46,052 bases of DNA. Origin: Nemertoderma westbladi. Lineage: Eukaryota > Animalia > Xenacoelomorpha. How positions within the stretch are numbered: position 1 is the stretch's first letter; each line of letters opens with the position of its first letter. The notes beneath the pieces were generated by a model, which did no database searches, had not been told where the DNA came from, and worked only from the letters and a program-made list of their open reading frames with translations. The position numbers and the translations under genes are program-made. This document shows, one piece after another, positions 1 through 45,956 of this stretch. Where the stretch lies: NCBI GenBank assembly GCA_032718475.1, contig JAUCBJ010001028.1, positions 1-46,052 of the forward strand, given 5' to 3'.

Positions 1-178
1 ATTCCAAATCAACTCGATTTATATCGATCTTAATTCAATGCAATCTAATTATATCTTAACCTACCGTCATACTGCTTTTACTGTTTGTAATTTTGTATCA
101 GTATAATTGGATGTTATTAGTTGAAGAATATCAATAATCAACCCACGTTTTCCCAATATCCTTGATACACTACAGGTT

Positions 179-780
179 AGAGAGAAGGGTTATGTACAAC
201 AATTGCGACTTTATTATTGTGTTTGTAGTGAATCTAATGTTGTTTGACAGACACTACCTGAGTCCAGTGCATATCTCTTTATACCTGATCAAAGTCAGTA
301 ACTGTCGGCATATCAGTGAGCAGTGTTGTGCGTTACCGGTAGCGTGCGTGATTGTAAAGTGATTTGGATCTGATAATAAAGCATTCCTAAAGAATGCGCC
401 CTATGCTTGAAATTTAAGCCATATCGTTGTGTGTAGTATCAGTCATAACTCTGTTTACATAGGTAGAGCGCCACGTCCTAAAAGGAACTGCTAATATTTC
501 CCGAAAGTGAATAATATTTGTCAGAGATTATATATTAGTAATCAATCGAATAATACAGTAGGCTTGACCGCAAATAAATTTAAGCCCACGAATCCAGTCT
601 CCCGGTGTTATAAACGGGTCATTTGGACGCGCATGGACTGGCTTCGGCTAATGTTTTGGTTTGTTTTGTATTAAATCTTATTATCTTAAAAAAGGCAGAT
701 TATCAATAAAGACATATAAATTTCGGCAGGTTAAACTGCTGAAGGTCTATAAAAGCGCGTACAATCTGCAAGCTCTCTTA
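179..780 (+). ncRNA. Putative large structured RNA or structured repeat, copy 1 (unknown family)
   Basis: Diverged homolog of 41511-42103. Stems with compensatory changes: ccagtc 594-599/gactgg 636-641, ttcggcag 722-729/ctgctgaa 736-743, pseudoknot acgcgc 627-632/gcgcgt 755-760, closing agagag 179-184/ctctct 773-778. G-U pairs favour the + strand. Confidence 0.6.
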
Positions 781-1922: not shown

Positions 1923-2161
1923 ATAACCCATAATAATGTTTATTCATGCTTACTTACAAGTGTGAACCGAAATTTAGTCTGGCGGAGATTTTCAACAAAT
2001 ATTAAATCTCTTTTAAATCCTTTAATATTAAACAGAAGATTATGTTATTATTGCTTTGGCGTGAGTTGGCTAAATAAGAACTTCTGAACTTAATAGGCCT
2101 CGTCGTTTGTTATGTTTTACAAGTTTTACAGTCTAGTCTAGGTTTTACACCATCAACTCAC

Positions 2162-2845
2162 CTCGGCTTCCAGACTTTCGGGACGGCTCAACAGATGACC
2201 TTCCGGCCCAGTTATTCCGGCATCCAATACACTTTTCTGCAGATCATCTATGACGTCACCATTCTCAGCATGGACCATAGCCAGCGCCCCGATATCGCGA
2301 CAATGTTGAAACACCTCAATAGTCTCGCTGTCTGTCAACATCAAATCATTTTTGTATGCCATATATATCTTGAACGAATTAACTCCCTTTTCTTTGACTA
2401 AAACCTCCATATCTTCTTTGACCTGCTGGTTCCACGAGGTAATAGCGACGTGCAAAGAGTAATCGCAGCAGACCTTGGGGTCCGCCCAGTCGCGCCATCT
2501 CTCGTACGCCACCAGCGGGGACTCGCGTTTCGAGGGAATAGCGAAATCAATGATAGTGGTAGTTCCACCACAGAGCGCAGCTCGTGTTCCAATGAAGAAA
2601 TCATCCACACTAACCGTGCCCATAAAGGGTAGTTGGAAGTGGGTGTGGACATCCAGACCACCAGGCATTACTAACTTATCAGTCGCGTCTATAATAGTAG
2701 CACCTCCAGGTATCTGTAAATCCTTCCCGACCTGTTTAATAACTCCATTCTCGATGTAAACATCAGCCTTCTCGGAGTAATCATCGTTTACAACCCGTCC
2801 ACCTTTTATGAGGATACGCTTCTGTGATCCCGCTGTGAGTACCAT
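2162..2845 (-). CDS. DPYS: Dihydropyrimidinase copy C, exon 1 (228 codons); exon 2 not in window
   Basis: GGLDVHTH metal motif, SFKIYMAYK (carbamylated Lys), VHAENG. Ends GAG|GTGAGT (donor 2156-2161), the same 684-nt exon as copies A and B. Confidence 0.92.
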
Positions 2846-3029
2846 TGTGTCGATATGGATTGTTTATAATTATTAAATATATTTATACGCTTTTTCAACT
2901 AGACTTTGATTGCTACTAGGTCTACGTACATAATTTACTGTACAATATAATTATTATTATTATTATTTAACATTATTCAACACTCATGCATAACAAACGC
3001 CAAGATTTATTGCAATACCACCCACCTAC

Positions 3030-3210
3030 TGTATATCAACCACCCTCCGTGAACGCAGATAGAGATTCAGTGGGCACTGCTGGCGAAGTAAACAGGTCTA
3101 CTTCTCTGGAAACCAACACAAGGAAAGCGCAGCCGTAGAAGAGACTGATTTCAAAGGGATACTGGACTTGAGAGACACGAAATTGGGACAACTATGGAGA
3201 ATCGGGAAGA
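3030..3210 (+). pseudogene. Degenerate 3' fragment of an RTE-like non-LTR retrotransposon ORF
   Basis: Translates with a stop and frameshifts to ISTTLRERR*RFSGHCWRSK...LLWKPTQGKR...DTGLE...MENR, resembling the C-terminus of the RT at 22560-24160. Confidence 0.6.
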
Positions 3211-3762
3211 ATTTCCACTTTTCGAGGTCGATATGTAGACCTACAGTACACGATAATTATACATGATATTGGGTACGCAGCAGTCGAGCATTCACTACCC
3301 TATGGAGTATGGAGACAGGGGGGGGGGGGGGGGTGGGGGGGGTGGCTGGACGTAAATTCCATTTCGGCGAATTAATATTTCGTCTCAATGTTAAATTCTA
3401 AGTTTAGGGAAAGGTGCAGGTTGCAGTGACGCGTGTTATTCTAACCAAAACAATAAATGAAACTCAATAGTACACGTTACAGTTTTATTTTTTAGAGTAG
3501 GCTAATGAGATGTTTACTTGCGTCGAATTTCCCATGGAGGGGGATTTGATAGCGTCAAAACACCCCGCTTTCTGACGTTATGATGACGACAAATTCACAA
3601 TAGTTGTCAACATCTGTTCCGACTTCATTGATATGGTTCGTTTCAAATTGGAACACAATTAATTATTTTAGTTTAAGAAAACATTTACGATATTTTAGTT
3701 AACGTAATATATCACCCACGTTCATATTCTTATATTTTAAAATATATCTTGCAATACTTATT

Positions 3763-3832
3763 ATTGTTATGTATATTCCGTTGCTTTGATTGTGCATGCA
3801 CGTACTGTGCTACGTTGGTAGTGCTACTCTTC
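3763..3832. repeat. Dispersed ~70-bp repeat with an inverted copy at ~7953-8026
   Basis: attgttatgtatattccgttgctttgattgtgcatg...tgtgctacgttggtagtgctactctt matches the reverse complement of the 7953-8026 region. Confidence 0.75.
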
Positions 3833-4091
3833 ATTTTTATTTTTATATTTTTTACATTCAATATAAATAAATAAGTGCTGGATGCCAGATACAATACATT
3901 CTATGACGTACTATTAATGTTAATTAAATCGTGTATTTTGGTATATATCATGTATTTAAAAATGTTCATTTTTGGTAATATAAATAAAAAAGATTACAAA
4001 AATAATGATTTAAGTTCTGGAATTCAATATTGTTTGTTCTAGCATACATAATTAACTAGTTCTAGAACACTATATTTCTTAGTGCAAGATG

Positions 4092-4925
4092 TCACTGTTG
4101 CGGGTAGGTGGTCGTTTTTTCCATTACAGGACCCGTGTAAGGCTCGCGATCGACTCCCTGCGGACGAGCAGCCCTTCGGCGCAACGTTGAGTAAATAAAC
4201 TCGCAATTCGCGTGCCGAGACAAGAACTTACCGGAGCCTTTAACCATCAACAGCTTGGATTCGTCCACCACGAGCTCCCCACGACATATTACGTAGATCG
4301 GTTGGCCTTGAACCTCGAGGCCTTCAAAAATGTTGAAATCGCAAGCGTGATGGTGAGTCGCCGCAGATAGGGTTCGCTTTACTTCCGGGTCCCACACAAT
4401 GACGTCCCCATCGGATCCAACGGCAACACGACCTTTCTGGGGGTACAAGTTGAATATCTTGGCGCTGTTGGTAGAGGTAACAGCAACGAACTGGTTCTCC
4501 GACAATACTCCTGGGACGACGCCTTTAGTCCAGACCACAGCTAGTCTGTCTTCTACGCCATTGATACCGCTGGGGATTTTAGTGAAGTCGTCCTTCCCCA
4601 TGGCCTTCTGGTCCGCATTGAATGTGCAGTTATCGGTTGACACGGTAGACAGCGATCCGTTACCAAGACAGTCCATTAGATACCCGGGAGTTTTTGGATC
4701 GGCGCGCAGCGGGGGACTAATTACGAACGCGGCTGCGTGGCGCCAGCACCCGTTGTAGTAATGGGTCCCGTCGGCCCCCAGACTGGCCGCTATTGGCTCC
4801 CCGAAGCAGACCTTCCCCGCAGCTCGCGCTGCCGCTATCACGTCGGCGCAGGATTTACTCATCACGTGGACAATGTAGACCGGACAGCTGTAGATGTCGC
4901 CTATTGTTATGGCTCTCCCGGCAGC
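4092..4925 (-). CDS. DPYS: Dihydropyrimidinase copy B, exon 2 (spliced protein 505 aa)
   Basis: Acceptor ccacag|GCT GCC GGG AGA (AAGRAITIGDIYSCPVYIVHVMSK), phase 0 and in frame with ORF 4092-4865. STDNCTF catalytic Asp, YPQKG, GSDGD. Confidence 0.93.
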   Translation of the reverse strand, partial: AAGRAITIGDIYSCPVYIVHVMSKSCADVIAAARAAGKVCFGEPIAASLGADGTHYYNGCWRHAAAFVISPPLRADPKTPGYLMDCLGNGSLSTVSTDNCTFNADQKAMGKDDFTKIPSGINGVEDRLAVVWTKGVVPGVLSENQFVAVTSTNSAKIFNLYPQKGRVAVGSDGDVIVWDPEVKRTLSAATHHHACDFNIFEGLEVQGQPIYVICRGELVVDESKLLMVKGSGKFLSRHANCEFIYSTLRRRAARPQGVDREPYTGPVMEKTTTYPQQ

Positions 4926-5894
4926 CTGTGGAAAATAAGAACTTATTTAATATCAACATTCACTAATGATAATTCAGTTCAAAGCAAAAACGAAATTAAT
5001 TTAAAAAGAAATTGGATCTCTCAATACGAACTACAACTACTAACCATAAAACCAACAGGTTTTACAAAGTATTTAAGTATTTAAAACATTAAATAATATT
5101 TAACTACAAAATTTAACCTTCAATTATTTTATACTTTGTCTACTTTCAGCCGTTTCTTGACACCATCCAACCATAAGGAACTAGACTAACTCCTGTTCAA
5201 TTGGTCTACATAATGCGCTTTATCAACCTTTTTAGCTCTTCACTAGGTTTGTGAAGCGGAGACACTCTAATAGAACCAGTTCTAGAATGACATCCGGTCA
5301 TATGTAATTCTGAAGTTATCAACCACTACAGACTATAATAGGCCTATTATTGAACAGAACGAGAGACAAACCTACATAACAAGATTATGCACGGGGACCC
5401 GCCTTCGCAAATTATACTTGAGTACAGTACTTTCCACCGACGGTAGACAATTCCACAAGACCACCCTGCACAGTTGATATAAACAAACACTGCAGTAATC
5501 TGTGTCACCACTACTATGTTCTTATACATACATGCCTTGTCCCTTTCCCTTCTCGACTACCACAGCTAGACCGAAACTAAATGGACTCAATAATGCTACA
5601 CAACATAAAACACTACAACTTGAACTTCTATGTTACAAATTAGGTTGCTCTTGGGCATTCAATACTCAAGAAGACTATTATTGATTGAATGGGGGAATCT
5701 TTCAGGCTCGTTAACCCAAGGAATGCCTTCACCACCATATGGGCAATCTTTCCACAGTAAACCGTTCCACTCTACAAGTAGACTAGTGATAGGTTTATAA
5801 GTTTTCTCGTCCTTCTTTTGAGTTATTGCTGCTACAATAAATGGTTCCATAGTATTACATACCGCTACTATATTAATTAAGATAACCAACTCAC

Positions 5895-6578
5895 CTCGGC
5901 TTCCAAGCTTTCCGGACGGCTCAACAGATGACCTTCTGGTCCAGTTATTCCCGCCTCCAATACACTTTTCTGTAGATCAGCTATGACGTCACCATTCTCA
6001 GCATGGACCATAGCCAGCGCACCGAGATCGCGACAATGCTGAAACACCTCAATAGTCTCGCTGTCTGACAACATCATAACGTCTTTGTAGGCCATGAATA
6101 TCTTGAACGAATTAACCCCCTTTTCTTTGACTAAAACCTCCATATCTTCTTTGACCTGCTGGTTCCACGAGGTAATAGCAACGTGCAGAGAGTAATCGCA
6201 GCATACCTTGGGGTCCGCCCAGTCGCGCCATCTCTCGTACGCCACCAGCGGGGACTCGCGTTTCGAGGGAATAGCGAAATCAATGATAGTGGTAGTTCCC
6301 CCACAGAGCGCAGCTCGTGTACCAATGAAGAAATCATCCACACTAACCGTGCCCATAAAGGGCAGTTGGAAGTGGGTGTGGGCATCCAGACCCCCGGGCA
6401 TTACTAACTTATCAGTCGCGTCTATAATAGTAGCACCTCCAGGTATCTGTAAATCCTTCCCGACCTGTTTAATAACTCCATTCTCGATGTAAACATCAGC
6501 CATCTCCGAGTAATCATCGTTTACAACCCGTCCACCTTTTATGAGGATACGCTTCTGTGATCCCGCTGTGAATACCAT
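5895..6578 (-). CDS. DPYS: Dihydropyrimidinase copy B, exon 1
   Basis: [20 protein letters not shown]. Donor GAG|GTGAGT at 5889-5894; intron 4926-5894 (969 bp). Confidence 0.93.
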
Positions 6579-7202
6579 TGTGTCGATGTTTGGGTTATTA
6601 AATATTAAAGAAATATTAAACTCTTTTGTAATTTGTAACTATGATTTTCTCTATAGTATTTATGTAGCTATTGGCTTTTTACAGCCGTAGTATATAGGCG
6701 ACTTCCATGATCCGTAATTCTGTCCCGCAATTTCCAGTCGCATTTCTCCGTGGGTGTAATTTATTGCCCTGCCAAAATTGGTCGATAGAGCGTAGTATTA
6801 ATTATATACTATTATAGAAACTGTTCTAGGGTTCTGCGAACACCACAAAACAAACACCTGGAAAACACAGCTTGCCAACACATTGTTACTATAATTAATT
6901 ATAATGACCGTGATTGATGGTTAACGGATAATATATACACTACCTTACAATTGTAGCGAGAGGATAATTACATTACAGGGTTCATCACAGTACAGTGGCT
7001 GCAGATATATTGGTATCGACAGATGGGAGGCCTTTTGACGACGTAGATTGAGGACATTGCCAGAGTTCTATCATGGAGAACACTCGTTCTGTCCCATGTG
7101 GAGGTAGCATTACCGATTTTGTAGAGCTCTGCCCAACAGAAATTATAATGAAAAGGAACTGACGGTTTGTCACACTGACTATTCACTCGTGTTACGTTTT
7201 AT

Positions 7203-7340
7203 TCTTACTTACAAGTGTGAATCGAAATTGAGTTATTCACAACTCACTCAACAGCTTATAACAAGATATTATTTATTAATCTTATTACAAGATATTTTAT
7301 TTTGTATTGCTTTGTGGCGAGTCGGCTAAATAAGAACTCA
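7203..7340. repeat. Dispersed repeat shared with ~1948-2085
   Basis: Both loci have ttacttacaagtgtgaa(c/t)cgaaatt ... tattgcttt...gagt(t/c)ggctaaataagaact. Confidence 0.6.
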
Positions 7341-9109
7341 AGTATGTTTGATAGATTTAAGAAGTTTCCACGTCTTGTACGGTAAGTAACAAGACTTCAT
7401 CCATTGATTATAGTTTCACACAATATAGGAGGGGGGTCTTTGTTTGTTTTCTTACATAAATATTTCCCTAAGAAGAAGTTTGATATACGACGTCCCCCTG
7501 TTGACTTTAACATTGTAGAATCCCACTGGTTCACTTCAGTTTCAGTAGCAAGTTAAATTAATTCGGAGAAAAAAACTTTTCTAAAAAAATACATGTGAAA
7601 GATACTATTGTCTTGGGAGAGAGGTGGACAACGGATTTGCGTAAAATTGTTAATAAAACATTTGTTTTTCCACTTAAATATAATCAGTTCTAGGCCTAGT
7701 AATTATTTAATTATTCAATATTAACGAAATATGGGACTAATTAATACAAGGTATTGATTGTGTTCATTCTTGCGTTGTTTTAAATAAAATGTTAGAAGTA
7801 CACGAACTTGAATTAATAAATTCACAATTATAATTTGCTTTTTAAACGGTTAACAAACATTAAAATGAATAATAGGCCTACTTTATTGGTAAGAAACGTA
7901 AACACGATAAATATATAATCAAACTCACCAGAAATACATTAAAAATGCAAAAAAGAGTAGCACTACCAACGTAGCACAGCACGGTACGTACATGCACAAT
8001 CAAAGCAACGGAATATACATAACAATTACAATAACTAAGATATGATTTTATGTTCTATAAAGGAATATAATACTAATGAATTGAACACCATGTTGTTATA
8101 GATACTAATTACGAGCTGTGATTGGTTACGTAAAGGTCAATAAGTTGATTGGTTACGTAAATGAGGTAATTAAGATACTTTGTTGAGTCTATGGTAAACA
8201 ATCGCGAAGGCATAAATAAATACAACATGAATAACTACTGACTTATAATATGATAATGATATAATATCTAACCGATAAATATTAACTCAGAAAATATAAC
8301 TAATCTACGAATCGATAATAAATAGTATAATATAACTATGATTTATAATACATATAAGTTCTTAAACATTTCCGTGATAATTTAGGTCAAAAAATTGTTG
8401 TTAAATGTTTTGTTAAAAATTGACGGAAGCTTCAATATTGGGGTGGTATTTTTTCAGAAACTTGTAGCTAAAGAATGAAAGCGAAAATAAAAATGCTGAC
8501 ACACCCAACAAGGAGGAGGGATCCCTGTTTCAAATTTAATGCAATATAATTAAGATTCATATAAAATTTGAGGGGTGGGGCAAGCCACTTAATTACAACA
8601 CTATATTCCAGGGGTGTATTAGTAATGGCAGAACTACACAAAGCAAACATTTTCAGTTAAATATTATGTGGGTTAAAATTACATGGCGCTGTAACCTGCT
8701 CCCTTCCTATAATTGATAATAAACATTTTTATTCGCTGAGATGGGATTTTTATCAACAAGGCTACCTACCTGTTTTCCAGACACCTTTGATACTAACTGA
8801 TAGTAATCGATGCTCAGTAAATATAACAACAATAAATATACTAACTAACTATACAGTATATATAATCTCTGACAACCAATTGAACTACTGGAATATAATA
8901 ATAATGGATAGGACTTCTACAACGTACTAAAATTATTAATCATGACAATGTGTGAAGTGATCAGTAAACACGTCTCTATGTGCAATATACCATTGTGGCT
9001 CAAAAAAGAAGGGTTGTATTTATGATTAAAATAATTTCACACAGCAATCTCACATGCTGAAATAAATATTCAATAAAAATGCAGCCTAAGGCAACCTCTT
9101 AGGGGCGGG

Positions 9110-9260
9110 AGAGGGGGTGGGAGTGAAATATATGACTTTTTGTGACAAGGGGGGGGGGGGGTGGGAGTGAAATATATGACTTTTTGTGACAAGGGAGGGG
9201 GGGGGGGAGTGAAATATATGACTTTTTGTGACAAGGGGGGGGGGGGGGGGGGGGGGGGGG
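9110..9260. repeat. Three tandem units of gggagtgaaatatatgactttttgtgacaag plus G-runs
   Basis: Unit visible three times, separated by poly-G. Confidence 0.85.
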
Positions 9261-10549
9261 CTCACGAATTTTGTGATAGATAATGTGACCAGTAGGAAGG
9301 AAGGCCCAGTTGTTATGATAGAAGGAACAAGAGTGGGAGTGGGAATAAAAATATCCGGAACTTAGTGCTTACTTACTTTATGAAAGGCCGCTACACACTG
9401 ACACTAGGTTATTATAAATAGAGGGAATGGTTGGGTCACCTTGGCAGGAGCGATAGAACGAATACTAATAATCTACTTAGAATTCGAGATACGTTTGCTG
9501 AGGTTAATACGAGCTAAGTAGTAAGTACAGATTTTATTGACGCAAAATGGAACATCTCATACGATTATCTAGACTCTTAAACGCATTCCATGTTTAATTT
9601 GAATTTAAGGGGGATTGTATTGTATCAAAGACTTAGTTATAATTGGCAGATATAACCGTGTACTGTGTGTACTGAACTGTAACAGATTTGGTAGGACAGA
9701 CATTAAAGATTAAAATGAGGATTAAAAATTATCAAAATCATGATAACATTGAAAAGAATTGTATGTCCGGACGTATCTGTATGAAGGATGTAATATTACT
9801 TTACTTTCTGATGGTAAGAAAGAATTATATGAGCCGAGGAGAAGTCAATAAGAGGAGAGGGTGGTTATATCATTGTGTGGGAATGGATAAATAAAATGTA
9901 TGGATGGAAAAATAAAGCACGGATGTATAAAGATAAAGCAGCAATGTATAGAACACAGCGGATTAAAACTAGAATTTATGTGCAATTTGTTTAAACTTGG
10001 TGCTGCAAACTAATAACTAAAAACTTAATAATAAGGGTGGGCTGGGTTTATAAGATATACTGCAAATTAAACGCCCAATTATTAGGGTTCAAACACTAAA
10101 CACGTTTGGTAATTAATTAATCATTGCAGCGAGTTAATTAAACGTAACGAAATGAACTGGCAGCTACAATGGGAACAACCTTGTTTAGGTGTCTATAATT
10201 TGGTATAATTACCTTAAATAACAATTAATACTCGATTGATGTTGATCTTGCCTAGATAATAATTCAGTTAATTTTACATAGAAATGGATCTTAAAGTGTA
10301 AAGAAAGAGAAAGACTATAAGAAAGAAATTAAATATTGAGAAAATGGAACGTTATTGTAATTATCAACTAGAATAGAATCACCAGAGTGAAGTTTAGGTT
10401 ATTTTAATATGTGGCTCTTGGATCACTTTTAACTTGCAAAAACGAAAGAAAAGACTAGTAAACACCAAAACAAGGTTGCTTAAATACAGTTTGGCACAAA
10501 TCTGGAAATTGACGATTAGATGATAAATTATTTATATAAACAAAAAGGC

Positions 10550-10941
10550 TGAGTTCTAGAAGATAATAATATTGAATCTAGAAAATTGGCGAAAAAATTA
10601 CAAGTTCTAAAACTAAGTATTTTCGGTTCAAGAACGCACCCAATATTGTCAACAACATAATAGATACAGAGTTCTAGAACGTAAAAATACTGAGTATTAC
10701 AACGCAATGTTGGCGACTTCTAGAACACAATGTGATAAGTTCTAGAAAGTATAATAATTAAGAAGTTCTATAAAACGATATTGTTAAGTTATAGAACGTA
10801 AATTATCGAGTTATAGACATATATAATATATTTACACATATAGAGTTCTAGAACACAATATTGTCACGTTCTAGAACTGAAAAATATAGAGTGTTAGAAC
10901 ACAATAATTCCTTGACTACAGGGGTGGTGTCGGTTCTAGAA
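10550..10941. repeat. Degenerate ~25-30-bp tandem array built on the palindrome TTCTAGAA, 3' of the DPYS-A stop
   Basis: About 14 exact or variant gttctagaac cores between 10552 and 10941. Confidence 0.7.
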
Positions 10942-11931
10942 GGTGATGCTGGACTTCCCACCGGGAGGTTCGTTGACCTGTCTGCCCGGCCGGAATGACT
11001 TCTTATCGTCGACTTGGACGCCGCTGAGAGCGAACCCGGAGGAGTGGAGGTCCCGGGCGCCGCTCTTGGTGAGGCCGCCGTGGAAGTCTCCGTTGTGGAC
11101 CGGCGGCTGGGCGGCGGCCGACGTGTCTACGACGGGGCCCCGGTACGGCTCGCGATCGACGCCCTTGGGAGGGGAGGCCCGGTGGCGCAACTTAGAGTAA
11201 ACGTAGCCGCAATTCGCGTGCCGAGACAAGAACTTACCGGTGCCTTTAACCATCAACAGCTTCGATTCGTCCACCACGAGCTCCCCACGACACATTACGT
11301 AGATCGGTTGGCCTTGAACCTCGAGGCCTTCAAAAATGTTGAAATCACAAGCGTGATGGTGAGTCGCCGCAGATAGGGTGCGCTTTACTTCCGGGTCCCA
11401 CACAATGACGTCACCATCGGATCCAACGGCAACACGACCTTTCTGGGGGTACAAGTTGAATATCTTGGCGCTGTTGGTAGAGGTAACAGCAACAAACTGG
11501 TTCTCAGACAATACTCCTGGGACGACGCCTTTAGTCCAGACCACAGCGAGTCTGTCTTCTACGCCGTTAACTCCGTTTGGTATCTTCGTAAAGTCGTCCT
11601 TCCCCATGGCTTTCTGGTCAGCGTTGAAAGTGCAGTTATCGGTTGACACGGTGGACAGCGATCCGTTAGCTAGACCGGCCATTAGGTAGGCTGGAGTCGT
11701 TGGATCGGCGCGCAGCGGGGGACTCAGTACGAACCCGGCGGCGTGTCGCCAGCACCCGTTGTAGTAATGGGTCCCGTCGGCCCCCAGACTGGCCGCTATT
11801 GGCTCCCCGAAGCAGACCTTCCCCGCAGCTCGCGCTGCCGCTACCACGTCTGCGCAAGATTTACTCATCACGTGGACAATGTATACCGGACAGCCGTAGA
11901 TATCGCCTATTGTAATGGCTCTCCCAGCAGC
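10936..11931 (-). CDS. DPYS: Dihydropyrimidinase copy A, exon 2 (spliced protein 559 aa, CRMP-like C-terminal tail)
   Basis: Acceptor ccgcag|GCT GCT GGG AGA, in frame with ORF 10936-11871. VHVMS, STDNCTF, KIPNGVNG; tail RDLHSSGFALSGVQVDD...PPGGKSSITF. Confidence 0.94.
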   Translation of the reverse strand, partial: AAGRAITIGDIYGCPVYIVHVMSKSCADVVAAARAAGKVCFGEPIAASLGADGTHYYNGCWRHAAGFVLSPPLRADPTTPAYLMAGLANGSLSTVSTDNCTFNADQKAMGKDDFTKIPNGVNGVEDRLAVVWTKGVVPGVLSENQFVAVTSTNSAKIFNLYPQKGRVAVGSDGDVIVWDPEVKRTLSAATHHHACDFNIFEGLEVQGQPIYVMCRGELVVDESKLLMVKGTGKFLSRHANCGYVYSKLRHRASPPKGVDREPYRGPVVDTSAAAQPPVHNGDFHGGLTKSGARDLHSSGFALSGVQVDDKKSFRPGRQVNEPPGGKSSITF

Positions 11932-12666
11932 CTGCGGACATTAAGGGTTTCTATTAATATCAATATTCAGTCATTCAAATTTCATTTAATATGTAAAATG
12001 TGTGACTGTTTGCTTTTAACCTTTCTGTATTCCAAAACAGAAACAAAACAGGTATATAACCAAACCATTTGTGCCAAGAACACAACCTACCATCCCCCCC
12101 AGACCCCCCCCCCCCCCCCCCCAATGTATTAGCTAATTTGAGAGCCAAGTAAACCGGAACTGTAACATGAATAGGTCATATTATTTATTATTATTAATAG
12201 GCCTTTCAATTTCACACAATTAAATTACAAACATTCAGTTTTATAGTATTCTTTGACATTTAATTACAATTTACGAAAAATCAAAATATATTATATACCC
12301 ACCCAACGCACCCAGTCGTAGTCGTTAGTCTCAGAATAATTTCCGAGGGTGAAAATAAAAGACGAACATTCAAACAACTTTGTCTCAATTTAATAAACAA
12401 TCACACATTAAATATTTTATATATACCGGTATTATTAGGTTGTTCAGGAGTGGAATCTGCGGCATACCACATAGGCCAGATGTTCTCAAGCACGATTCAA
12501 TAGTACAAACTTGCTATGGTCGCGTGGGCGTTTGTGAAACAGATTTACGAAAGATATTTCTGAGGTTTTACTAATAATTACTAATATTATTAGGATAATG
12601 GCATGTATTCGGAAACACAACATAACAACGTCAGGAAGGAGCTACGGACCAGACAAATGTATTCAA

Positions 12667-13206
12667 TTATATTTCATTTATATTTCACGTCAATAAGCTA
12701 CTAATAGTAAAAAACCGTACAGGTAGGTATGTACAACAAGTAAATAAAAAATCAACTGGAGACCCAGACATGCATGTAATCAGTGATCAGCTGACTGCAG
12801 ACAGCTGATCGGTAGGTTTCGCCCCAATACAGCAGGCTTTCTCAGGATGCTCAAGCTAGCAGGACGACAGTAGAGTGAAGTTCCCAAAGGAGAAGAACAG
12901 GCAAAGTGTGGTGGGGCTGATACATACTAACTAACCACTGGGAAGCAGCACTACAAACTTTTTCTTTGTAAAACTTTTTTGTTTGAAAAAATTTTATTTA
13001 CCGTACTTGTTTGTTGTACATACCTACCGGTACGGTTTAATACTATTAGTAGCTTATTGACGTGAAATATAAATAAAATATAATAATCATTCTAGATCAT
13101 TATTATTATTAATAGGCCTTTCAATTTCACACAATTACATACCTACTGTACCGGTACGGTTTTTTACTATTAGTAGCTTGACGTGAAATATAAATAAAAT
13201 ATAATT
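12667..13206. mobile_element. MITE-like inverted repeat with a duplicated right arm
   Basis: tatttcacgtcaataagctactaatagta...ccgtac..gtaggtatgt (~12667-12750) recurs inverted at ~12992-13084 and again at ~13136-13206. Confidence 0.6.
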
Positions 13207-13479
13207 AGCAACTTTTCAAGCTTTCCTTACTACTGCTAAATGTATTAAAGTTCAGGTAATCCATATAACTGCTATCGTGTTAGCTAAACAAAAAAACGTG
13301 GAACCCTAGGTAGCGGCTGGGAATACACCACCGTGAAAGCTTATTAATTGAGAGCCGCTTGGACGCCTGTGAGGGAATTACCCTATATTGCATCATCTGC
13401 ATAATAATATACCTATTATATATATAGAGCAAGAATAGGGCCTAGTATATAATATTCAAGACAAGTGGGTGGTCTGTAC

Positions 13480-14310
13480 TGTACCGAATAAACGGTTTTA
13501 TCACTCTGTAGGCCTATAGAGACAACATTACATGCCAAAAAGGCCCAGATTGGCATCAACGTTTTGCTAACTCTGATATTAGACAGTTTTACCTATAACT
13601 TTTTCTTTATTAAACTCAGTCCAATGCCTATGTGAAGTCTACAATTACGCCGTATAGTTTTCCACCAGTTTTGCTAAAATAAATGCGGCGCGCAGTATTT
13701 AATTTGCCACGATAGTTTATCTAACTATTTTGAATCCATATCGTGAGTTTAGAATTTACGTACCGGTATTTTGTTTAACAGCACATTTGTACAAACACCG
13801 TGATGGTGGCGTTAATATTCACGAGGCAGAAGAACAGTACGCTGTAGGTATTTGATGAATATTATTCTTATTTGCTTTTATCCAGATGTATTACAACATG
13901 GGTTAACTAAACAAGCGAAATAGATGCGAAATAATGTAGGTTGGCCCATGGAGGATCCTTATAATATTACTCCAAAGCTTACACTTTAAAAACCTTTTGC
14001 AATACCGTCTGGCCTGACCTGGCGACAATAAACTTTATATCTGACCAAAAAGATTATAGGCCGAGTTTAATGCCTATCAACATTTCCTATTTTAAAATAG
14101 GAGAAATTTAAAATTGAACTAGTTACAGCATAGTTATTACACCTATCATCTACCACTTTTCAAAACTTATTCGCCAGAATTCCATAACATATAAACCTCC
14201 TCTATTGGAATAATATTATTGGAATGAACTACCTACTGAAATTCGAAGAATCCCGATACTCTCTAAATTTAAATTAAAACTTAAGGAATTTATCTTATTT
14301 ATATACCCAT
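13480..14310 (+). pseudogene. Highly decayed L2/CR1-group LINE 3' fragment
   Basis: 3' end translates to WNELPTEIRRIPILSKFKLKLKEFILF, the typical W-N-x-L-P...F-K-x-x-L-K terminus. Upstream sequence is badly eroded; left boundary approximate. Confidence 0.5.
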
Positions 14311-15210
14311 ACCCACTAACCTGCAATCTTAACTCATATTTGGTAAATCTTTATCAGCTAGCATAAAATTTGAAACTGATCTTTAACGAATCTTTAGCTA
14401 CAAGCCTTTAAAAAAGTGTCTCAGTCGAAATTGTACCAGCTACATAGTATATACCGGTAGTTATTTTTCAAACGGTGCTAATGCACCGTAGGCCAGCTAC
14501 TTATGATCAAAACAAAATGTTCCAGAATAAATGCCAGTAGTATTTCAGATAATTTCCAAATATAACATTTTACAAAAGTTACATTACATCCATAAAATCA
14601 ATAAAAACAGCCGTTCTGTCAGGTCTTGGGGGCCTTCAGTACCTCCTGCCATTTTGGAGTTGAATTTACAACTTAAAAGTTGAATTAAAAAAAAAGTTTT
14701 AAATTGCAACTCAGTTGAAATGTGAACTTCTCCCCGACTGATATTAAGCTATAAGCAAATTCAATAGACGAAACTTGTCTCGGTATTGGGATTGAAATAA
14801 CGAAAACAAATATTAAGGAAATAATTTAAAGCTGCTATGATAGTCAACTGTGAACCTGGGTATGATTGAAACAGGGATTACGATTGAATAGGCCAATATT
14901 AGGGTGGCCTTATAATTGTATTTTGCAATCTATTGATTGATTTGATTGATTGATTTATCTTATCCCCTAAAAGTGTTCCTTTGGATAAAATATAACGTAG
15001 TAGTTGTTGCGGTTTATACCGTTACCGCGGTTATCGTGATAGACCAAAAAAGGCTGCCTTCTCCATTACTAGACTTCTGCATCTGCTTGTCTCATTAGGA
15101 TTACAAATATCGCTTTAGACAACATCAAATTTAGAAATACTGGAAATAGTTATTGAGATATTGGTTAAAAGGTGAACTACAGATCTCACATAATCTATTG
15201 GATCAATGCG

Positions 15211-15385
15211 ATATCCCTCTTGTGTAATATCAATATCATATCTCTCTTGTGTAATATCAATATCATATCTCTCTTGTGTAATATCAATATCATATCCCTC
15301 TTGTGTAATATCAATATCATATCCCTCTTGTGTAATATCAATATCATATCCCTCTTGTGTAATATCAATATCATATCCCTCTTGT
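15211..15385. repeat. 27-bp minisatellite, ~6.5 copies
   Basis: Unit atatccctcttgtgtaatatcaatatc; explains ORFs 15172-15396 and 15206-15427. Confidence 0.95.
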
Positions 15386-15949
15386 TTATTATCTAACCTA
15401 CTTTATACTCTTTGCTATCCCCGCTAAAAAGATGTTTGCCATGAATCAATGAGACAAACATGAGAAGATTCATAAGATCTGCAGAAGTCTAGTAAAGGGA
15501 GAAAGGCAGTAAAGTATGATGAAAAAAACTAATTTATAATTAGTTTAATAATAATAATAAATTTAATAAATAATATAATTTTAAATGAGATTTAGTCATT
15601 CAGTCATTATTATTTACATTAGTTAGCTATAGGCCTAATTTAAACACAGGGCTAGACACAAAGAGATTATAAACTTATGATTAGAGCAAATTAGTACATC
15701 ATCGTTTTTGTTCATAAAAAAGAGCTAAATTGCTTGTTTTTTGAAAATTTCTGATGACAAAAATATTTTGGTTTCATGCATGAAACCCACAGACTAAAGT
15801 CTTTGAGTTTCTGTCTTTAACTAAGCCGACAATAAAACCTCACTGCTGGCAGCTGGAATGACTAATATTACCTTATCCCTTTTTAAAACAGAAATCAAAT
15901 CGATTATTTTAATATATTGTAGGCTTACAGGTATCTACTGAACTACCAG

Positions 15950-16234
15950 TGCTATATAAAATATAATCCTGTAATCTTGAACAATCAACAATTGCGGCCC
16001 CATATAATTTATCTAACCATAAAGAATGAACTGATGAACTAATCTGCCAATCAAGCTCAGACAGTCAGGTCAATCTAATCAATCAATATACAGATATACA
16101 AATACACAGCCTGACAGAAATACTACAAAAACCTAGCGATAACATTCAAAAACCTTCCAAAAACCTGCAAAAACCTAACAAAAACCTAAAATCTAATTTT
16201 TGTTTTGAAAAACCTAAGGTTTTTGCCAGCCCTG
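15950..16234. mobile_element. Solo right end of the hAT family at 17360-19987, inside the DPYS-A intron
   Basis: Similar to 19710-19987, including aaaacct subterminal repeats and the TIR tttgccagccctg. No matching left end seen. Confidence 0.75.
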
Positions 16235-16340
16235 GTAGGCTGTATGAAATGGCATTGGCATTGGTGCTGAATGATCATGTAGATTGTAGAGAGATGCATT
16301 AGATTAGGCCCAAGCCCAACATAAAATCAAATCAACTCAC

Positions 16341-17024: not shown

Positions 17025-17665
17025 TGTGTCGATTGTTACCGGTAATTATTAAATATACTTATAATCCTTGGAACGGATATTGATTGACGGAACAAGTTGT
17101 AGTGTAGCTAGGTATTGCACTACCGGTAGTGAATTTGCTTAGGTCAAAAAACCTAATTTGCACCTAGCTGCCTAGGCCTACACCAGTTTGAGGAATTTTA
17201 TAGAAGGTTCTGAGATTACAGCAATAATTCGCTTGGGGAAGCATTTAAGCAGTACCGGTAGTAGGAGTGGAGTGGTGGCCCCAAATGAGGCTCTTAAATC
17301 AAAGTAATTTTTAGAAAACCGATAAGTACTGAAGTAAGAAAATGTTGGTTAGGCCTACCCAGGGCTGGCAAAGTAGGTTTTTGTAAACCTAGGTTTTTGT
17401 AGGTTTTTGTCAAAAACCTAAAATTTGAAAAAAGCCTAAAACTAGGTTTTTAGGTTTTTGATTTTTCATCTTTAATTTGCCTTTTAATTTCATTTGTACA
17501 CTCAAAACAACTGAACAAGTCAACTTGCATTGTCAGCTGATGAGTTCCAGTCCAGTCCAGTTCCCAGTTGTCTTGTCACTGCTGACAAGCTGACTGATGC
17601 AAGTTAGCTGATGCAAGTTACCGTAGCAGTCAGATGGTCCGGTACCGGCTGACCGGGAGGTAGAA

Positions 17666-39241: not shown

Positions 39242-41504
39242 CCTTCGTGTTATCCTCGGGTCATATTGACCCATTTCAATTTTCAATCGCAAAATATCAA
39301 TAGAAAAAATTTCTATTTTTGGCTAGAATTAATTGACTTTTATAAATTGTTTACGGTGAATCCAAATCTGATGTCGAATTGGGGGGGTCACTATTGGTTC
39401 ATGAAAAAATATACATTTACCTATTTATTATCCTTGGGTCATAATGACCCACACCCCTTGTCACTGTATTTTATAGGAAAATTCAAACAATACTGCTACC
39501 GGTATCGTTTAGACCAGACTGTTATGCCAATATTCTACTGCGAAAAATATTTTGCTATATATTTCTTATACTGAACTGAGCATTACGGTACTACAGTACT
39601 AACAACTAATATCTAGTAAATGTTAAATGGCGGATGGTGAATCTGGATGGAGTGATCTGGATGTGGAAGACAATGTATCTTCGTGTTCGGAAGAGTCAGG
39701 CAGCAGTGTATCCAGCAACTTTCTTGAATTTGAAATGTCAGATGTTGGGGACCAAGACAGCGATGACGAGATCAGTGATTGCGATACCATACCTGCCACT
39801 GACAGTACCATACCTGCCACTGTTAGTGCTATACCTGCCACTGTTAGTGCCATACCTGCCAACGTTGATGAATACTACACGTCGAAGAATGGCTCCATCA
39901 AGTGGAAGAAGACACCAGTGGCGATAGCTGGAAGAACACCTGACCGGAATATTATTCATGAAAGGCCCGGACCAACAAGGTATGCTACTTCACGATGCCA
40001 CGACATAGTTAGCTCATTCAGCGTGTTCTTTCATCCGTCAATGGATAAACTGGTCATTGATATGACAAACAAGAATGGCCTATATGTATTTGGGGATGCA
40101 TGGAAGCCGGTTGATCTTGTTGAATGGCAAGCATACATTGGAATCCTTTTGCTTGCTGGAGTATACCGGTCAAATGGTGAAGCCCTGCCATCCCTATGGG
40201 CAACTTCAACTGGGCGTTCCATATTTCGAGCAACAATGTCGCTCAAGCGTTTTTATCAGTTGAATCGTGTTGTCCGATATGATGATAAAGCGACCAGAAC
40301 AGCAAGAAGAGAACTCGATAAATTCGCTCCAATTCGGGAACTATGGGATAAGTTCATTGCTGTTTTGCCCTTAGCATATACACCATCCACCGATGTTTGT
40401 GTTGACGAGCAGCTAGTTGGTTTCCGTGGCCGATGTCCATTTCGGCAATATATTCCATCGAAACCAGTGAAATATGGTATCAAGTTCTGGGCAGTAACTG
40501 CGGGATCTTATGTTTACGGGATTCAGCCATATCTAGGAAAGCCAGAAGGAGCTCCCTCTGAAGTAAATCAGGGGAAGAGAGTCGTTCTTGAGCTCACACA
40601 AGGACTCAGGGGTCGCAATATCACCTGCGATAACTTTTTGACTTCCTACAATCTCTGTCAGGAACTCAAAAGGCGTCGGCAAACTCTCGTCGGAACGGTG
40701 AAAAAAAATAAAACTGAGCTACCTAAGGAATTTGTGACGCACAAAGGAAGAACTCCGCTGACAACGTTGTTTGGCCATACAGATGATACGACCATTGTCT
40801 CATATTGTCCTAAGAAGCGCAAGGTTGTGACTCTAATGAGTACAATGCACATGAATGCCGAGGTAATCGAAACTCGTAAAGATAAGAAGCCCGAAATTAT
40901 TCTCCATTATAATCGCGAGAAAGGAGGTGTTGACACTGCAGACAAGTGCACAGTTACTTATACAAGCAAGCGAATGACCAAGCGATGGCCAGTCGTGGTA
41001 TTCGCAAACATCCTTGATATAGCTGCGTACAATGCCTACATCATTTGGTCCGAGATAAATCCAAGCTGGTGCAAAGATATCAAGTTTCGTCGTCGTCTTT
41101 TTCTTGAACAACTCGGGAAGGATCTCATCAAAAGCCACATCGAGCGCCGGGAGGTCATGCCCCGAGATGAAGTGGCCACTCAAGTTGTTAGATCCATACA
41201 AGGCAGTGAATCTGGGCCTACAGTTTCTCAACCACGAGCTAAGTCTATCTCTGAGACGTCGAAGCGATCTCGATGTCATCTATGCTCAAAAAATGACAAT
41301 AAATATAACTTACAGTGCTGCAAATGCTCTAAATATGTTTGCAAGGCACATGCATTTGTTTTATGCAGTGATTGTAAATGATTGCGATAAGTGATTGTAA
41401 TGTAAATTTAGGTTAATTCTATATAATTTAAGGTAAATTGAAATTGGGTCACATATTGACCCAGAGGATCAAACATGATAATTTTTTTGAGGATAACACA
41501 AAGG
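39242..41504 (+). mobile_element. Full-length piggyBac transposon (2263 bp)
   Basis: TTAA at 39238-39241 and 41505-41508. 16-bp TIRs CCTTCGTGTTATCCTC / GAGGATAACACAAAGG (1 mismatch). Internal gggtca..tgaccc palindromes at both ends and at ~39436. Confidence 0.96.
39627..41381 (+). CDS. piggyBac transposase, 584 aa
   Basis: Acidic N-terminus; catalytic DDD (CVDEQ, TCDNF, GGVD); PSKPVKYGIK; C-terminal Cys-rich domain RCHLC...CCKCSKYVCKAH...CSDC. Confidence 0.96.
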   Translation: MADGESGWSDLDVEDNVSSCSEESGSSVSSNFLEFEMSDVGDQDSDDEISDCDTIPATDSTIPATVSAIPATVSAIPANVDEYYTSKNGSIKWKKTPVAIAGRTPDRNIIHERPGPTRYATSRCHDIVSSFSVFFHPSMDKLVIDMTNKNGLYVFGDAWKPVDLVEWQAYIGILLLAGVYRSNGEALPSLWATSTGRSIFRATMSLKRFYQLNRVVRYDDKATRTARRELDKFAPIRELWDKFIAVLPLAYTPSTDVCVDEQLVGFRGRCPFRQYIPSKPVKYGIKFWAVTAGSYVYGIQPYLGKPEGAPSEVNQGKRVVLELTQGLRGRNITCDNFLTSYNLCQELKRRRQTLVGTVKKNKTELPKEFVTHKGRTPLTTLFGHTDDTTIVSYCPKKRKVVTLMSTMHMNAEVIETRKDKKPEIILHYNREKGGVDTADKCTVTYTSKRMTKRWPVVVFANILDIAAYNAYIIWSEINPSWCKDIKFRRRLFLEQLGKDLIKSHIERREVMPRDEVATQVVRSIQGSESGPTVSQPRAKSISETSKRSRCHLCSKNDNKYNLQCCKCSKYVCKAHAFVLCSDCK

Positions 41505-41510: not shown

Positions 41511-42103
41511 ATAAAGGGCATATATCCTTTAACCAGATAAACGATTGTGACTTATGTTAAAGTGGTTTGAAGTGAATCTAATGTTATTTGATAGACCCTA
41601 CATGAGTCAGCCTGTGTTCCTTTATATGTGACTAAAATCAGTGAAGATTGTCAGATTAGTGTGCAGTATTGTGCAGCATTGTGTATGAGTGAGTCTGTTA
41701 AAGAAGCAATTCCTAAAGAATGCGCCATATATGTGAATTATAATTAAGCCATATCGTTGTGAGTAGTTTAAGTCATAACTCTGTTTATATAGATAAAGCG
41801 CCACGTCCTAAAGGAACTGTTAATATTACCGAAGGTGAATAATATTGTCAGAGATTATATAATACTGTCAGTCGAATAATACATTAGGCTTACATAGCAA
41901 TAAAAATTAAACCGTCGAACCCAATCTCCCGGGAATATCCAGCGGGTGAATGGTCGCGCACGGATTGGTTTCGACTAGTGTAGTGAATCAAATACTTGTC
42001 ATAGACTAAAAAGCAGATTTATTATCTAGAAGACATCTCTAATTTGGCGGGTTAAACTGCCAAAGGTCTGAAAGCGCGAACATTAAAGGATATAGCTTCT
42101 TTA
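41511..42103 (+). ncRNA. Putative large structured RNA or structured repeat, copy 2
   Basis: Closing helix tatatcctttaa 41521-41532/ttaaaggatata 42083-42094; ccaatc/gattgg; gtcgaa/ttcgac; tttggcgg/ctgccaaa; pseudoknot tcgcgc 41954-41959/gcgcga 42074-42079. Confidence 0.6.
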
Positions 42104-42346
42104 TTGCAGTAAGCAATAAAGTCGAAAGTACCGGTCGACCGGTAACCAGTAGGCCTGACTGCCTGATCATCCGGACCGGTACCTACAGCAGTATTATTCG
42201 ATTTTGATAGTTATATACCGGTAGGCCTTAATAATTAATCAGGGAGGGCCCGCCCTGGTTTTTTATTGAGATTTTTACTTATTTCTGTCAAGTTTTATTT
42301 ATTTGTAGGCCAGTATTGAACAGAAGGCGTGTAAGCCTGATCAGAT

Positions 42347-42920
42347 TGTACAGACGATTTGTAGGCTGAGCTGTTGTCTGATTGCTGTTAAGTCCGAACG
42401 AGTTGCAGTGTGTGTAGAGCACTTGTCCGATTAAGTACGGTTAGGAAGTAGGGGCAGCCAATGCGGTAAGGTAATCCCCCAGCTAAAGAATAAGTCGCAC
42501 TACTGGGTTAGAGCGCATACTCCCTAATCATTTCGGAGTCTGCATGTCCTGTAATTTATTTAGGCTTGAGAGTAGTCTGCCATCGTTTGGTCTGTACTTT
42601 GTTTGTGTAGTCTGTACAGGTAGCGTATAATATCATTTAGATAATTTGTAGGCTGGATAGTTGTCTGTCTGTTATTAGGTCTGAACGGATTGCAGTGTGT
42701 GTAGAGCCCTTGTCCGATAAAGAACGGTTGGGAAGTTGGGGTAGCCATTGCTGTAAAGTAAACCCCCAATTAAAGAATAAGTCGTACTACTGGGTTAGAA
42801 CGCATACTACCTAACTATTTCGGAGTCTGCATGTCCTGTAGTTTATTTAGGCTTGATAGTAGTCTGTCAGTATTTAGTCTGCATTTTTGTTTGAGTGGTT
42901 TGTACGCGTAGCGTAATATT
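42347..42920 (+). repeat. Two diverged ~287-bp tandem units sharing motifs with the large structured repeat
   Basis: Units start at ~42357 and ~42644. Ordered motifs tttgtag, tgttgtctg, gcagtgt, taaagaat, aagtc, taga(g/a)cgc...gga..ctgc. Confidence 0.8.
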
Positions 42921-44234: not shown

Positions 44235-45956
44235 ATGTCTGATACTAAGCAGAACCTGTCAGACAGTTTATTAGATGTAACTATCTGCGACTCAGATAGA
44301 GACGTACAACCGTCTGGTCGTAAATCCAGTTCACCTCCCACTGTGAGGAAGGTCATCCCTCCAGTAGTAATAACAGAACCTAGGCTAGTCCAACATCGTA
44401 GGTCTATCATAGGCACTCGAGCTCAGGTCAAGCGGGACCAAAAGGCAGCGGAACAGCAACAACCCGCTAGTCAAGAACTTATTCCTCAGCGGCCCAGCAG
44501 CTCCAGTAGTGAGGATACTGTAGAGCTGACACCCGAGAGCGGAGCAGAGATGACGGATGCGGTTTATACGGATCCCCTTCTCATCCTTCCTGCAGCCGTG
44601 CTCGCTGGGTTATTGATCGCGGTGGAAGAACACCAGATCGATTGGGCGAGAAGTCAACGGTCAACTAGAGATAGCTACGCGGGCTACACTAGTGAAGAAC
44701 TGAAGTCTATTGTCGAGTCGCAATGGAACTTCCCCGGACCCGGACTCCCGTTTGATTTATCAGAAGCTGCCTGGGAAGACATACACAGGATGGGAGTAGC
44801 CAAGGAAACCATCGATCCAGCTGTGTGGAAGAGGTCCGCAGCCGGATACGCACAGGGATTCTTCAGCTCTATGGAGCGAATAGAAAAGCAACTTTTTCAA
44901 CAACCTCAAGGACCTCAAGAGCAGGGATCGCTGCTTTATCAAGTTAGAGAAAGAGTTCTGCGGATTAGGCTAATCTTATCCGCCTTTGAGGAGGCTTCTA
45001 AAAGAAAACAAGACACGTCGTTGCAAGTTGCCGTAAAGACTTGGTTTCAACGGGTGAGTCGCCAGGTTCAAGGAGCAGCTCAGTGGAAGGCTCAGTTGGA
45101 GGAGCGCTCAACCCATGGAGAATCAACAGACGCTACTTTTTCCCAAGTGGAAAGTGAAGCGACGGCAGAGAAACCGCATAAGAAGGATGCCATTGATATC
45201 TATCTGTCAGACTATCAGCGTTTTGTGGGAGATGAAGAGTTGAGGAGAAGGCTAGAGGGACTTAGCCCTAATAGCGAAGGAGCCAAACTTGTGTTAGATG
45301 CGATTGATGTGGATAGGTTAGCGGCGAACCAAGCTAAATTCGATGAACAACTCCGCATCGCTAGAGAAAGGGAAGAACAAGTAAGGAAAAAGCGTATAGA
45401 AGACAGAAAGATAGCAGCAGTGGCAGAGGCAGAAAGAAAAGCGGCAGCGGCAGAGGCAGAGGCAAAAGCGGCAGCGGCAGCGGCAAAAGCGGCAGCAGTG
45501 GCGGAAGCAGAACGAACAGCGGCAGCGGCAGAGGCAAAAGCGGCAGCGGCAGCGGCAAAAGCGGCAGCAGTGGCGGAAGCAGAACGAACAGCGGCAGCGG
45601 CAGAGGCAAAAGCGGCAGCAGCAGAGGCAAAAGCGGCAGCAGTGGCGGAAGTAGAACGAAAAGCGGCTGAAGAGATCATCCAACTGGAGTTGGAAAATCT
45701 TCAAGAGAAGCAAGACGACTTCAGTAAACAGTTAGCAGCTAGTAATATGCAGATGATGAGTCGATCTACTCCCAAAAGACAAGGGTATACCTCATCTGAG
45801 GAAGGCGATACCACCGACACTGAAGGCGGAAGAAATCGATCTCGCCTAAGCAGACGTAAAAGAACATTCCACCGGCAGAAATTACCTGATTTGCCTCCAG
45901 CTGTTAGAAGGCAACTAAATAACACTAACTTAGGTAGTACAGAGCCCACAGACTGA
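44235..45956 (+). CDS. Uninterrupted 573-aa hypothetical protein with Ala/Glu/Lys coiled-coil repeats, possibly a mobile-element ORF
   Basis: Long GC-richer ORF in an AT-rich context; repeated AAAVAEAERTAAAAEAK units; basic C-terminal patch; no catalytic or CCHC motif recognised. Confidence 0.7.
   Translation: MSDTKQNLSDSLLDVTICDSDRDVQPSGRKSSSPPTVRKVIPPVVITEPRLVQHRRSIIGTRAQVKRDQKAAEQQQPASQELIPQRPSSSSSEDTVELTPESGAEMTDAVYTDPLLILPAAVLAGLLIAVEEHQIDWARSQRSTRDSYAGYTSEELKSIVESQWNFPGPGLPFDLSEAAWEDIHRMGVAKETIDPAVWKRSAAGYAQGFFSSMERIEKQLFQQPQGPQEQGSLLYQVRERVLRIRLILSAFEEASKRKQDTSLQVAVKTWFQRVSRQVQGAAQWKAQLEERSTHGESTDATFSQVESEATAEKPHKKDAIDIYLSDYQRFVGDEELRRRLEGLSPNSEGAKLVLDAIDVDRLAANQAKFDEQLRIAREREEQVRKKRIEDRKIAAVAEAERKAAAAEAEAKAAAAAAKAAAVAEAERTAAAAEAKAAAAAAKAAAVAEAERTAAAAEAKAAAAEAKAAAVAEVERKAAEEIIQLELENLQEKQDDFSKQLAASNMQMMSRSTPKRQGYTSSEEGDTTDTEGGRNRSRLSRRKRTFHRQKLPDLPPAVRRQLNNTNLGSTEPTD

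Follow-up and report, generated by a model that had tools for sequence, protein, structure and literature searches.

Introduction

Self-priming has been described for the Tf1/sushi chromoviruses and predicted in two plant groups, and the accessible accounts of it present a small three-duplex fold. In Tf1, the 11 nt of the 5' end are paired with the primer site, and RNase H cuts behind them (PMC7175516, PMC4600332); the side duplexes of the three-duplex fold link primer-site-adjacent sequence with LTR sequence, according to a preprint (bioRxiv 10.1101/2022.12.06.519325). A published screen for self-priming looked for a complement of at least 10 bp beginning 0-5 bp past the 5' LTR (PMC6317226).

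Here we analysed a locus of Nemertoderma westbladi; "the window" means the whole stretch of 46,052 nucleotides of contig JAUCBJ010001028.1. We give a probability of about one half to the reading that a sequence present twice in this window is the 3' ~570 nt of the terminal repeat of an abundant element, likely an LTR retrotransposon, whose RNA folds for tRNA-free self-priming. As in the Tf1/sushi chromoviruses (Tf1, Tf2, Tj1, Tosmo1-3, sushi-ichi), the locus has no tRNA primer site, the sequence just past the CA of the LTR is complementary to an upstream segment of the same LTR, and a candidate second duplex ties LTR sequence to the bases immediately 5' of the primer site. Unlike in those elements, primer and site are separated by ~550 nt of conserved multi-domain structure, for which pseudoknots or a switch are candidates, a 2.15-kb leader carries tandem structured repeats, the ORF is an orphan and the host is an invertebrate. 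Pol lies outside the window.

Results and discussion

Two copies of the structured region

The copies were aligned by blastn at 198-763 and 41540-42082 with 73.1% identity over 579 columns (E 2.5e-79), which bears out the two non-coding copies placed here by an earlier, sequence-only reading of this DNA; a third copy was not found in the window. The following features are used below:

1..196, plus strand: U3-like high-copy sequence upstream of copy 1, running off the window start
197..763, plus strand: copy 1, structured region (presumed R-U5), ending ...GCGCGTACA, with low-depth sequence next
207..264, plus strand: domain A, GACTT/GAGTC plus 220-225/248-253, closing a nearly invariant 22-nt loop
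238..555, plus strand: candidate second pseudoknot, a 10-bp helix (238-247/546-555) that crosses AAGCC/GGCTT
416..565, plus strand: domain C, AAGCC/GGCTT, ATAACTCTG/CAGAGATTAT and three small hairpins
573..578, plus strand: AATAAA, candidate poly(A) signal, aligned with 41899 of copy 2
584..760, plus strand: 3' module, ACGCGC/GCGCGT and hairpin 722-743, plus a pseudoknot or nested option
41539..42082, plus strand: copy 2, structured region, ending ...GCGCGAACA, with high-copy internal sequence next

All helices named in the sequence-only reading were present in both copies with the base swaps it described. The stem CCAGTC/GACTGG of copy 1 is kept as CCAATC/GATTGG in copy 2, the 8-bp hairpin lies at 722-743 in copy 1 and at 42043-42064 in copy 2, and the AAGCC/GGCTT, GACTT/GAGTC, AGAC/GTCT and ATAACTCTG/CAGAGATTAT helices were found in both. 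In domain A, the helix 220-225/248-253 shows a U-A versus G-C swap between copies; domain C is the most conserved part and holds the depth peak (441-528). The helix 238-247/546-555, absent from the earlier reading, has a single G-U/A-U change and zero double changes, and the pairing 231-235/697-701 is invariant in the presence of a competing local hairpin in both copies, and is only a candidate for a long-range helix. Elsewhere in the window, 8853-8875 on the minus strand matches the CAGAGATTATA part of the repeat over 24 nt; this is not significant by profile and is possibly a decayed repeat fragment.

Abundance and ends of the repeat

Depth was taken from contigs of four public runs (X1, X3, X4, X5). 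Summed depth in X1, which does not equal copy number, was 1.6e5-1.4e6 on 45-748 against 0-54 on the flank 793-1300, 2e4-4e5 on the U3-like stretch 1..196, and 2.8e5-1.6e6 over 41562-42500, with 2.8e5-8.0e5 from the end of copy 2 to 42500. In X3, single contigs had depths of 16,588 (the contig at 80-265) and 20,191 against ~22 on the flank, which implies at least hundreds of near-identical copies. The depth of the copies is thus thousands-fold that of the flanks and stays high both 5' of copy 1 and 3' of copy 2, so that the fold is part of a longer element with its body 3' of copy 2. The idea that the fold itself is the unit does not survive this result, because high depth begins at ~45 or earlier at copy 1 and continues past 42500 at copy 2.

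Homology between the copies ends at ...ACA (763/42082). A contig of depth 340 in X5 terminates at 42082, three X5 contigs diverge at 42083 and 42086 into long unrelated sequence, and contigs of X1, X4 and X5 pass from 763-765 into sequence resembling the hairpin 3' of copy 2; after the ACA end there is either internal sequence or unique flank, depending on the contig. The two downstream contexts, together with the ACA end and the aligned AATAAA, indicate an LTR-like repeat, by comparison with LTRs that end in ...ACA, for example CGTNACA in rGmr1, with a mean LTR length of 695 (PMC3601003). Like the LTRs of rGmr1, an animal Metaviridae element, the repeat is long, ends in ACA after GCG and has an internal AATAAA; unlike them, it is not followed by a TGG site and fits CGTNACA partially, each copy being short of one base. 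The 3' end carries the integrase motif CA, and the fit to YNYAACA is partial. The sequence-only reading had allowed that an ordinary LTR would take away the novelty, and this largely applies, the RNA being the 3' part of a high-copy terminal direct repeat; the repeat ends at ACA and a non-tRNA primer-site position follows.

Copy 1 is probably a 3' or solo repeat, since low-depth sequence follows its end, and copy 2 is probably a 5' repeat, since high-copy internal sequence follows; the two are parts of different insertions. The window begins inside the repeat that holds copy 1; copy 2 breaks off at a piggyBac transposon, on whose side its U3-like part is absent. Within the window we found neither a 5' TG end nor a target-site duplication, a polypurine tract, an RT or an integrase of this element. 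A possible splice donor (CAG/GTTAGA) lies at 175/176, just 5' of the structured region, and one read variant is closer to the consensus donor there.

Self-complementarity at the primer-site position

The features around the ACA end of copy 2 are:

41521..41532, plus strand: candidate self-primer, TATATCCTTTAA, complementary to the 12 nt from 42083
42083..42094, plus strand: primer-site position, TTAAAGGATATA, without TGG, perfect complement of 41521-41532
42099..42121, plus strand: 9-bp hairpin in the predicted fold, at the start of the internal region

No TGG of a tRNA primer site was found in 42083-42200. The 12-bp complement starts at offset 0 after the ACA, in copy 2 only, and a comparable 12-mer within 600 nt occurred at 34 of 5000 random window positions; a length of 12 bp at offset 0, in this one copy, lies inside the range of the self-priming screen as its published definition gives it (PMC6317226). 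The pairing extends imperfectly over 41510-41532/42083-42103. When its energy was compared with 3000 random segments of the window, copy 2 gave -20.3 kcal/mol, matched by 2 of them, and copy 1 gave -11.7 kcal/mol, matched by 206, so the closing helix proposed earlier stands out from chance in copy 2 and is not confirmed in copy 1. This chance-like level suggests that the sequence of copy 1 past 763 is possibly flank, despite the resemblance of 771-781 to 42093-42103. The helix had been taken as a mere stem; the same pairing is self-complementarity at the primer-site position, and we consider it the best new clue. Among other post-ACA read variants, judged by eye, pairing of 6-7 nt was seen with 5' variants on separate unlinked contigs, and one variant pairs better locally, with 744-752 over 9 bp.

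In our reading the region is likely the R-U5 leader of an LTR retrotransposon that primes itself, and as such a leader it is unusually long and elaborate. Transcription would start near 41510-41521, the first 12-23 nt of the transcript would be paired with 42083 onward, and the duplex 627-639/744-760 beside the primer site would correspond to the flanking duplex of the Tf1 'pretzel'; the RNase H of the element would cut behind the paired 5' segment to give a 3'-OH primer, and the whole folded region would then be copied into minus-strand strong-stop DNA. Since the primer site would be recopied from the primer in each cycle, arms that change together between subfamilies would be explained. The duplex 627-639/744-760 is present and covaries where one side duplex of the pretzel is expected (5' side), and for the 3'-side duplex there is just a 5-bp candidate by eye with a competing local hairpin. 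Two other sources of a primer were considered by eye. A primer made at the splice joint was rejected, as the bases 5' of the donor 175/176 are unpaired with the post-ACA segment of copy 2; pairing of the post-ACA segment with the AATAAA segment was not seen in copy 2, though one read variant would do so over 8 nt, with 702-709.

Several observations count against self-priming, the short pairings of the other post-ACA variants among them. The perfect complement is known from one copy, and another way to see the 12-bp arms is as one palindrome, split where a TTAA was duplicated; copy 2 starts at the TTAA of the piggyBac transposon, and the LTR reading then requires an adjacent deletion. Also, TATAAA occurs at 41510, and if this were a TATA box the start site would fall 3' of the candidate primer.

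Retroviral dimer signals kiss between molecules, and two GC-rich hexamers of the repeat might do so as well. On such grounds the repeat could be LTR-like with a fold that serves packaging, dimerisation, 3'-end processing or export, the 12-bp helix being accidental or a closing stem, an explanation that we regard as unlikely. The AATAAA directly 5' of the hairpin domain, the further long G-U-rich rods downstream in the leader and the TTAA at the inner end of both 12-bp arms agree with it, but it leaves the absence of a TGG primer site unexplained, and it has to accommodate a complement that begins at the first base past the ACA with an energy equalled in 2 of 3000 random segments. The RNA may in itself have a part in packaging or dimer formation.

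The surroundings of copy 2 and elements without an integrase

Three features adjoin or follow copy 2:

39242..41504, plus strand: piggyBac transposon with 16-bp terminal repeats and TTAA on both sides (PF13843, E 1.3e-68)
42357..42915, plus strand: a tandem pair of 287-bp repeats, 84% alike, within the long leader, predicted to form G-U-rich rods
44235..45956, plus strand: orphan 573-aa ORF, whose product has coiled-coil repeats rich in alanine and ends in basic sequence

The piggyBac transposon encodes a transposase of 584 aa (39627-41381), has a low-copy depth of 46-108 in X1 and abuts copy 2. It was rejected as the carrier of copy 2, having its own ends and a depth ~10,000-fold lower. It is apparently intact. 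Its left flank is a moderately repeated sequence with another continuation in its other copies, so the two flanks of the transposon may stem from different original sites. Each 287-bp repeat is predicted to fold into a rod of ~270 nt, with 91 consensus pairs, 4 double changes and a z-score of -2.0, and these rods are candidate packaging or export signals. The 573-aa ORF probably belongs to the element, which the reads trace as far as 42500, and would then be in gag position. It matched no Pfam family, and no homologue, near or longer, was found, with 0 matches among 1.84 billion representatives, no Atlas match and no viral locus; a single-sequence structure model (pLDDT 47, uninformative) gave no Foldseek match. 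A 38-codon open stretch in the -1 frame (45938-46052) shares its first part with the end of the ORF and stays open to the window edge, and no canonical slippery heptamer was seen at the overlap.

Traits described for Penelope-like elements include partial tandems, inverted truncated copies, 30-40-bp tails, introns whose start lies in the pLTR, and clades that lack canonical hammerheads (PMC8557442). As in Penelope pseudo-LTRs, copy 2 is truncated at its 5' side and has a short inverted segment ahead of it, and the possible splice donor at 175/176 would suit such an intron. The repeat might accordingly belong to an element that lacks an integrase, either as a Penelope-like pseudo-LTR or as a split direct repeat of a tyrosine-recombinase element of the Ngaro/PAT type, and the fold would then act where the unit ends. 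The Ngaro/PAT-type architecture has split direct repeats (A1..B1-A2-B2) and a tyrosine recombinase, and split direct repeats would account for a first repeat with nothing upstream. We find this explanation rather improbable, because the first ORF is without an RT or GIY-YIG domain, the repeat ends sharply in an integrase-type ACA and has no hammerhead core, the internal depth is about that of the repeat where heavy 5' truncation would leave it far lower, and low-depth DNA rather than a second repeat follows copy 1.

The rest of the window, in keeping with an intron-poor invertebrate, holds the following. Dihydropyrimidinase-like genes lie in tandem at 2153-17045 on the minus strand in copies 91-96% alike, with the first exon present three times (2153-2863, 5877-6638, 16332-17045) and the second exon twice (4092-4946, 10936-11940). 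An intronless AGXT2 of 495 aa is found at 31333-32820 (minus strand), with ~60% identity to many animal orthologues, and its best named matches, also at ~60% identity, are from marine animals. A truncated non-LTR reverse transcriptase fragment occupies 22542-23519 on the minus strand (RVT_1, E 3.3e-9; DUF6451), a 43-copy array of a 20-bp unit spans 24443-25300, and the long inverted repeats 21767-22094 (125 nt, 100%) and 29274-29529 (76 nt, 88%) are probably MITE-like or foldback elements.

Tests of the RNA structure

A model built by hand has 20 helices with 98 pairs, of which 84 were identical, 8 had one-sided changes, 6 had double changes and 0 were broken, a count that is circular, the helices having been picked because both copies hold them. 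Shared strong helices numbered 16 against null means of 8.7-13.6, and this number was reached by 2, 5, 7 and 29 nulls per 150; double changes in shared helices numbered 4 against 1.6-2.7, with 14-45 of 150 nulls reaching 4. The covariation claimed by the sequence-only reading thus stands as far as the swaps themselves are present, and falls short of formal proof with two copies and double changes that are not significant. Of 16 population variants in the contigs, three lay inside helices of the first helix table and all three kept the pair, these being copy-2 alleles and hence not independent.

Blind tests were made in two ways. When one copy was folded and its pairs were scored in the other through a MAFFT alignment, no signal was obtained. 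In the second, an affine alignment made without knowledge of the structure was used, with pairs at p>0.9 and substitutions moved locally: on the plus strand, 8 pairs were broken versus 15.5 expected (5/1000 nulls) and, in a second comparison, 11 versus 17.7 (17/1000 nulls), and the minus strand showed no pair retention. With letters redrawn at fixed sites over the whole region the result was not significant (129/1000, 512/1000). The signal peaks in the 3' part, a sub-region picked post hoc. The blind-test support is moderate, confined to the plus strand and dependent on the alignment, and it agrees with the plus-strand polarity proposed earlier. Folding z-scores were -3.9 for the 3' part of copy 2 (41890-42130, 0/200 shuffles as low), -1.6 for that of copy 1, -1.4 and -2.4 for the whole copies, and near zero locally along copy 1; the RNAalifold consensus of the two sequences was implausible.

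It is quite improbable, in our estimate, that no structure is selected, that is, that the copies are two AT-rich repeat subfamilies with helices picked by eye, or a Helentron-like DNA element with single-stranded DNA hairpins. The weak z-scores of the whole copies, the near-zero local values in copy 1, the null MAFFT test and the non-significant double changes speak for it, and the inverted pair with the hairpin 42099-42121 recalls Helentron ends, which consist of an inverted pair plus a 3' hairpin. Against this, the blind-test signal is strand-specific, the stretch 41890-42130 reaches z -3.9 with 0/200 shuffles as low, all 14 changed pairs are kept in the (circular) hand model, and depth does not drop past the hairpin. 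We consider a selected structure on the plus strand likely but not proven, and the description as a structured plus-strand RNA, borne by a mobile element and outside known families, holds.

Alternative folds of the 3' module

The ACGCGC/GCGCGT helix of copy 1 is TCGCGC/GCGCGA in copy 2 and crosses the CCAGTC stem. The pseudoknot option combines CCAGTC/GACTGG and AGAC/GTCT with this helix, and a covarying alternative, 634-639/744-749 (U-A versus C-G swap between copies), extends the ACGCGC helix without crossing and is incompatible with the CCAGTC stem; each of the two folds has one double change. Constrained energies for copy 1 were -41.9 kcal/mol for the pseudoknot (plus -9.2 for the duplex, loop cost excluded) and -47.6 for the nested fold, and for copy 2 -44.2 (plus -9.4 for the duplex) and -53.2 kcal/mol. 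The helices, the crossing and the swap of the pseudoknot read earlier are thus present, but its claim to be the fold is weakened by a near-isoenergetic nested alternative that covaries too, which makes the 3' module a possible switch. The module may toggle between the two predicted folds, and these near-equal states may represent priming on the one hand and packaging, dimerisation or translation on the other.

Searches for relatives and catalytic RNAs

The whole window had 0 Rfam matches at the gathering threshold and chance matches only at E<10, the best scores of the copies (E 0.12 and 1.9) being far below threshold, so that the novelty put forward earlier stands with respect to Rfam; the families considered included group I/II introns, RNase P/MRP, IRESs, small ribozymes and OLE/GOLLD/ROOL. 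For the hammerhead, Rfam gave no match and the sole CTGATGA..GAAA match of the window, at 15751, is at chance level. The collections searched were viral, metagenome, prokaryote, phage and plasmid, none of them a collection of animal genomes. Two patterns found 0 relatives in metagenome contigs and one pattern 0 in prokaryote genomes, blastn found no match to the copies in plasmids and phages, and in viral contigs one pattern had 0 loci and three others 3, at least 120 and at least 120; a profile of the two copies scored none of those 243 listed viral loci better than E 0.66. The literature covered, in which subscription journals are thinly represented, yielded no account of an LTR that folds in this way.

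Telomerase RNA carries a template, and RNase P has a bulged U and GGAAAG. By eye, telomerase RNA was rejected as the copies have no template, and RNase P as they have a similar helix order with no bulged U and no GGAAAG; group I introns, group II introns and U6 were also dropped by eye, and a tRNA- or rRNA-derived SINE was rejected as no tRNA was found. The IRES suggested earlier is unlikely for the ORF, which begins 2.15 kb downstream. The ribozyme suggested earlier is unsupported, with no Rfam match and no hammerhead core in or near the RNA. On this view the ~570-nt R-U5 region would be a large RNA of a new kind, catalytic or switching, that places its 5' end on the primer site and cleaves itself, making the 3'-OH primer in place of RNase H in a group I/II- or RNase P-like manner. 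The idea would suit a fold that spans exactly primer to primer site, is far longer and more conserved than the Tf1 three-duplex fold requires and has invariant unpaired motifs and candidate pseudoknots, but it is very improbable, as no Rfam ribozyme model scores even weakly and group I P7, group II domain V and the bulged-U P4 of RNase P misfit by eye.

Implications

Retroviral 5' leaders (the HIV-1 leader with its dimer signal, the HTLV-1 R region) have long folded R-U5 regions and use tRNA primers. The present RNA resembles them in its alternative conformations and in the GC-rich hexamers beside the primer site, a likeness of architecture; none of sequence was seen. The self-priming mechanism is known, and the size, architecture and host found here appear not to have been described previously. 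Self-priming by this RNA, if true, would broaden both the host range of the mechanism and the architectures known for it, here a ~570-nt, multi-domain and possibly two-state RNA in an abundant invertebrate element; a catalytic fold would amount to a new class of large ribozymes. A single genome that carries hundreds to thousands of diverged copies would allow the structure to be solved by covariation alone, which is rare for retroelement leaders.
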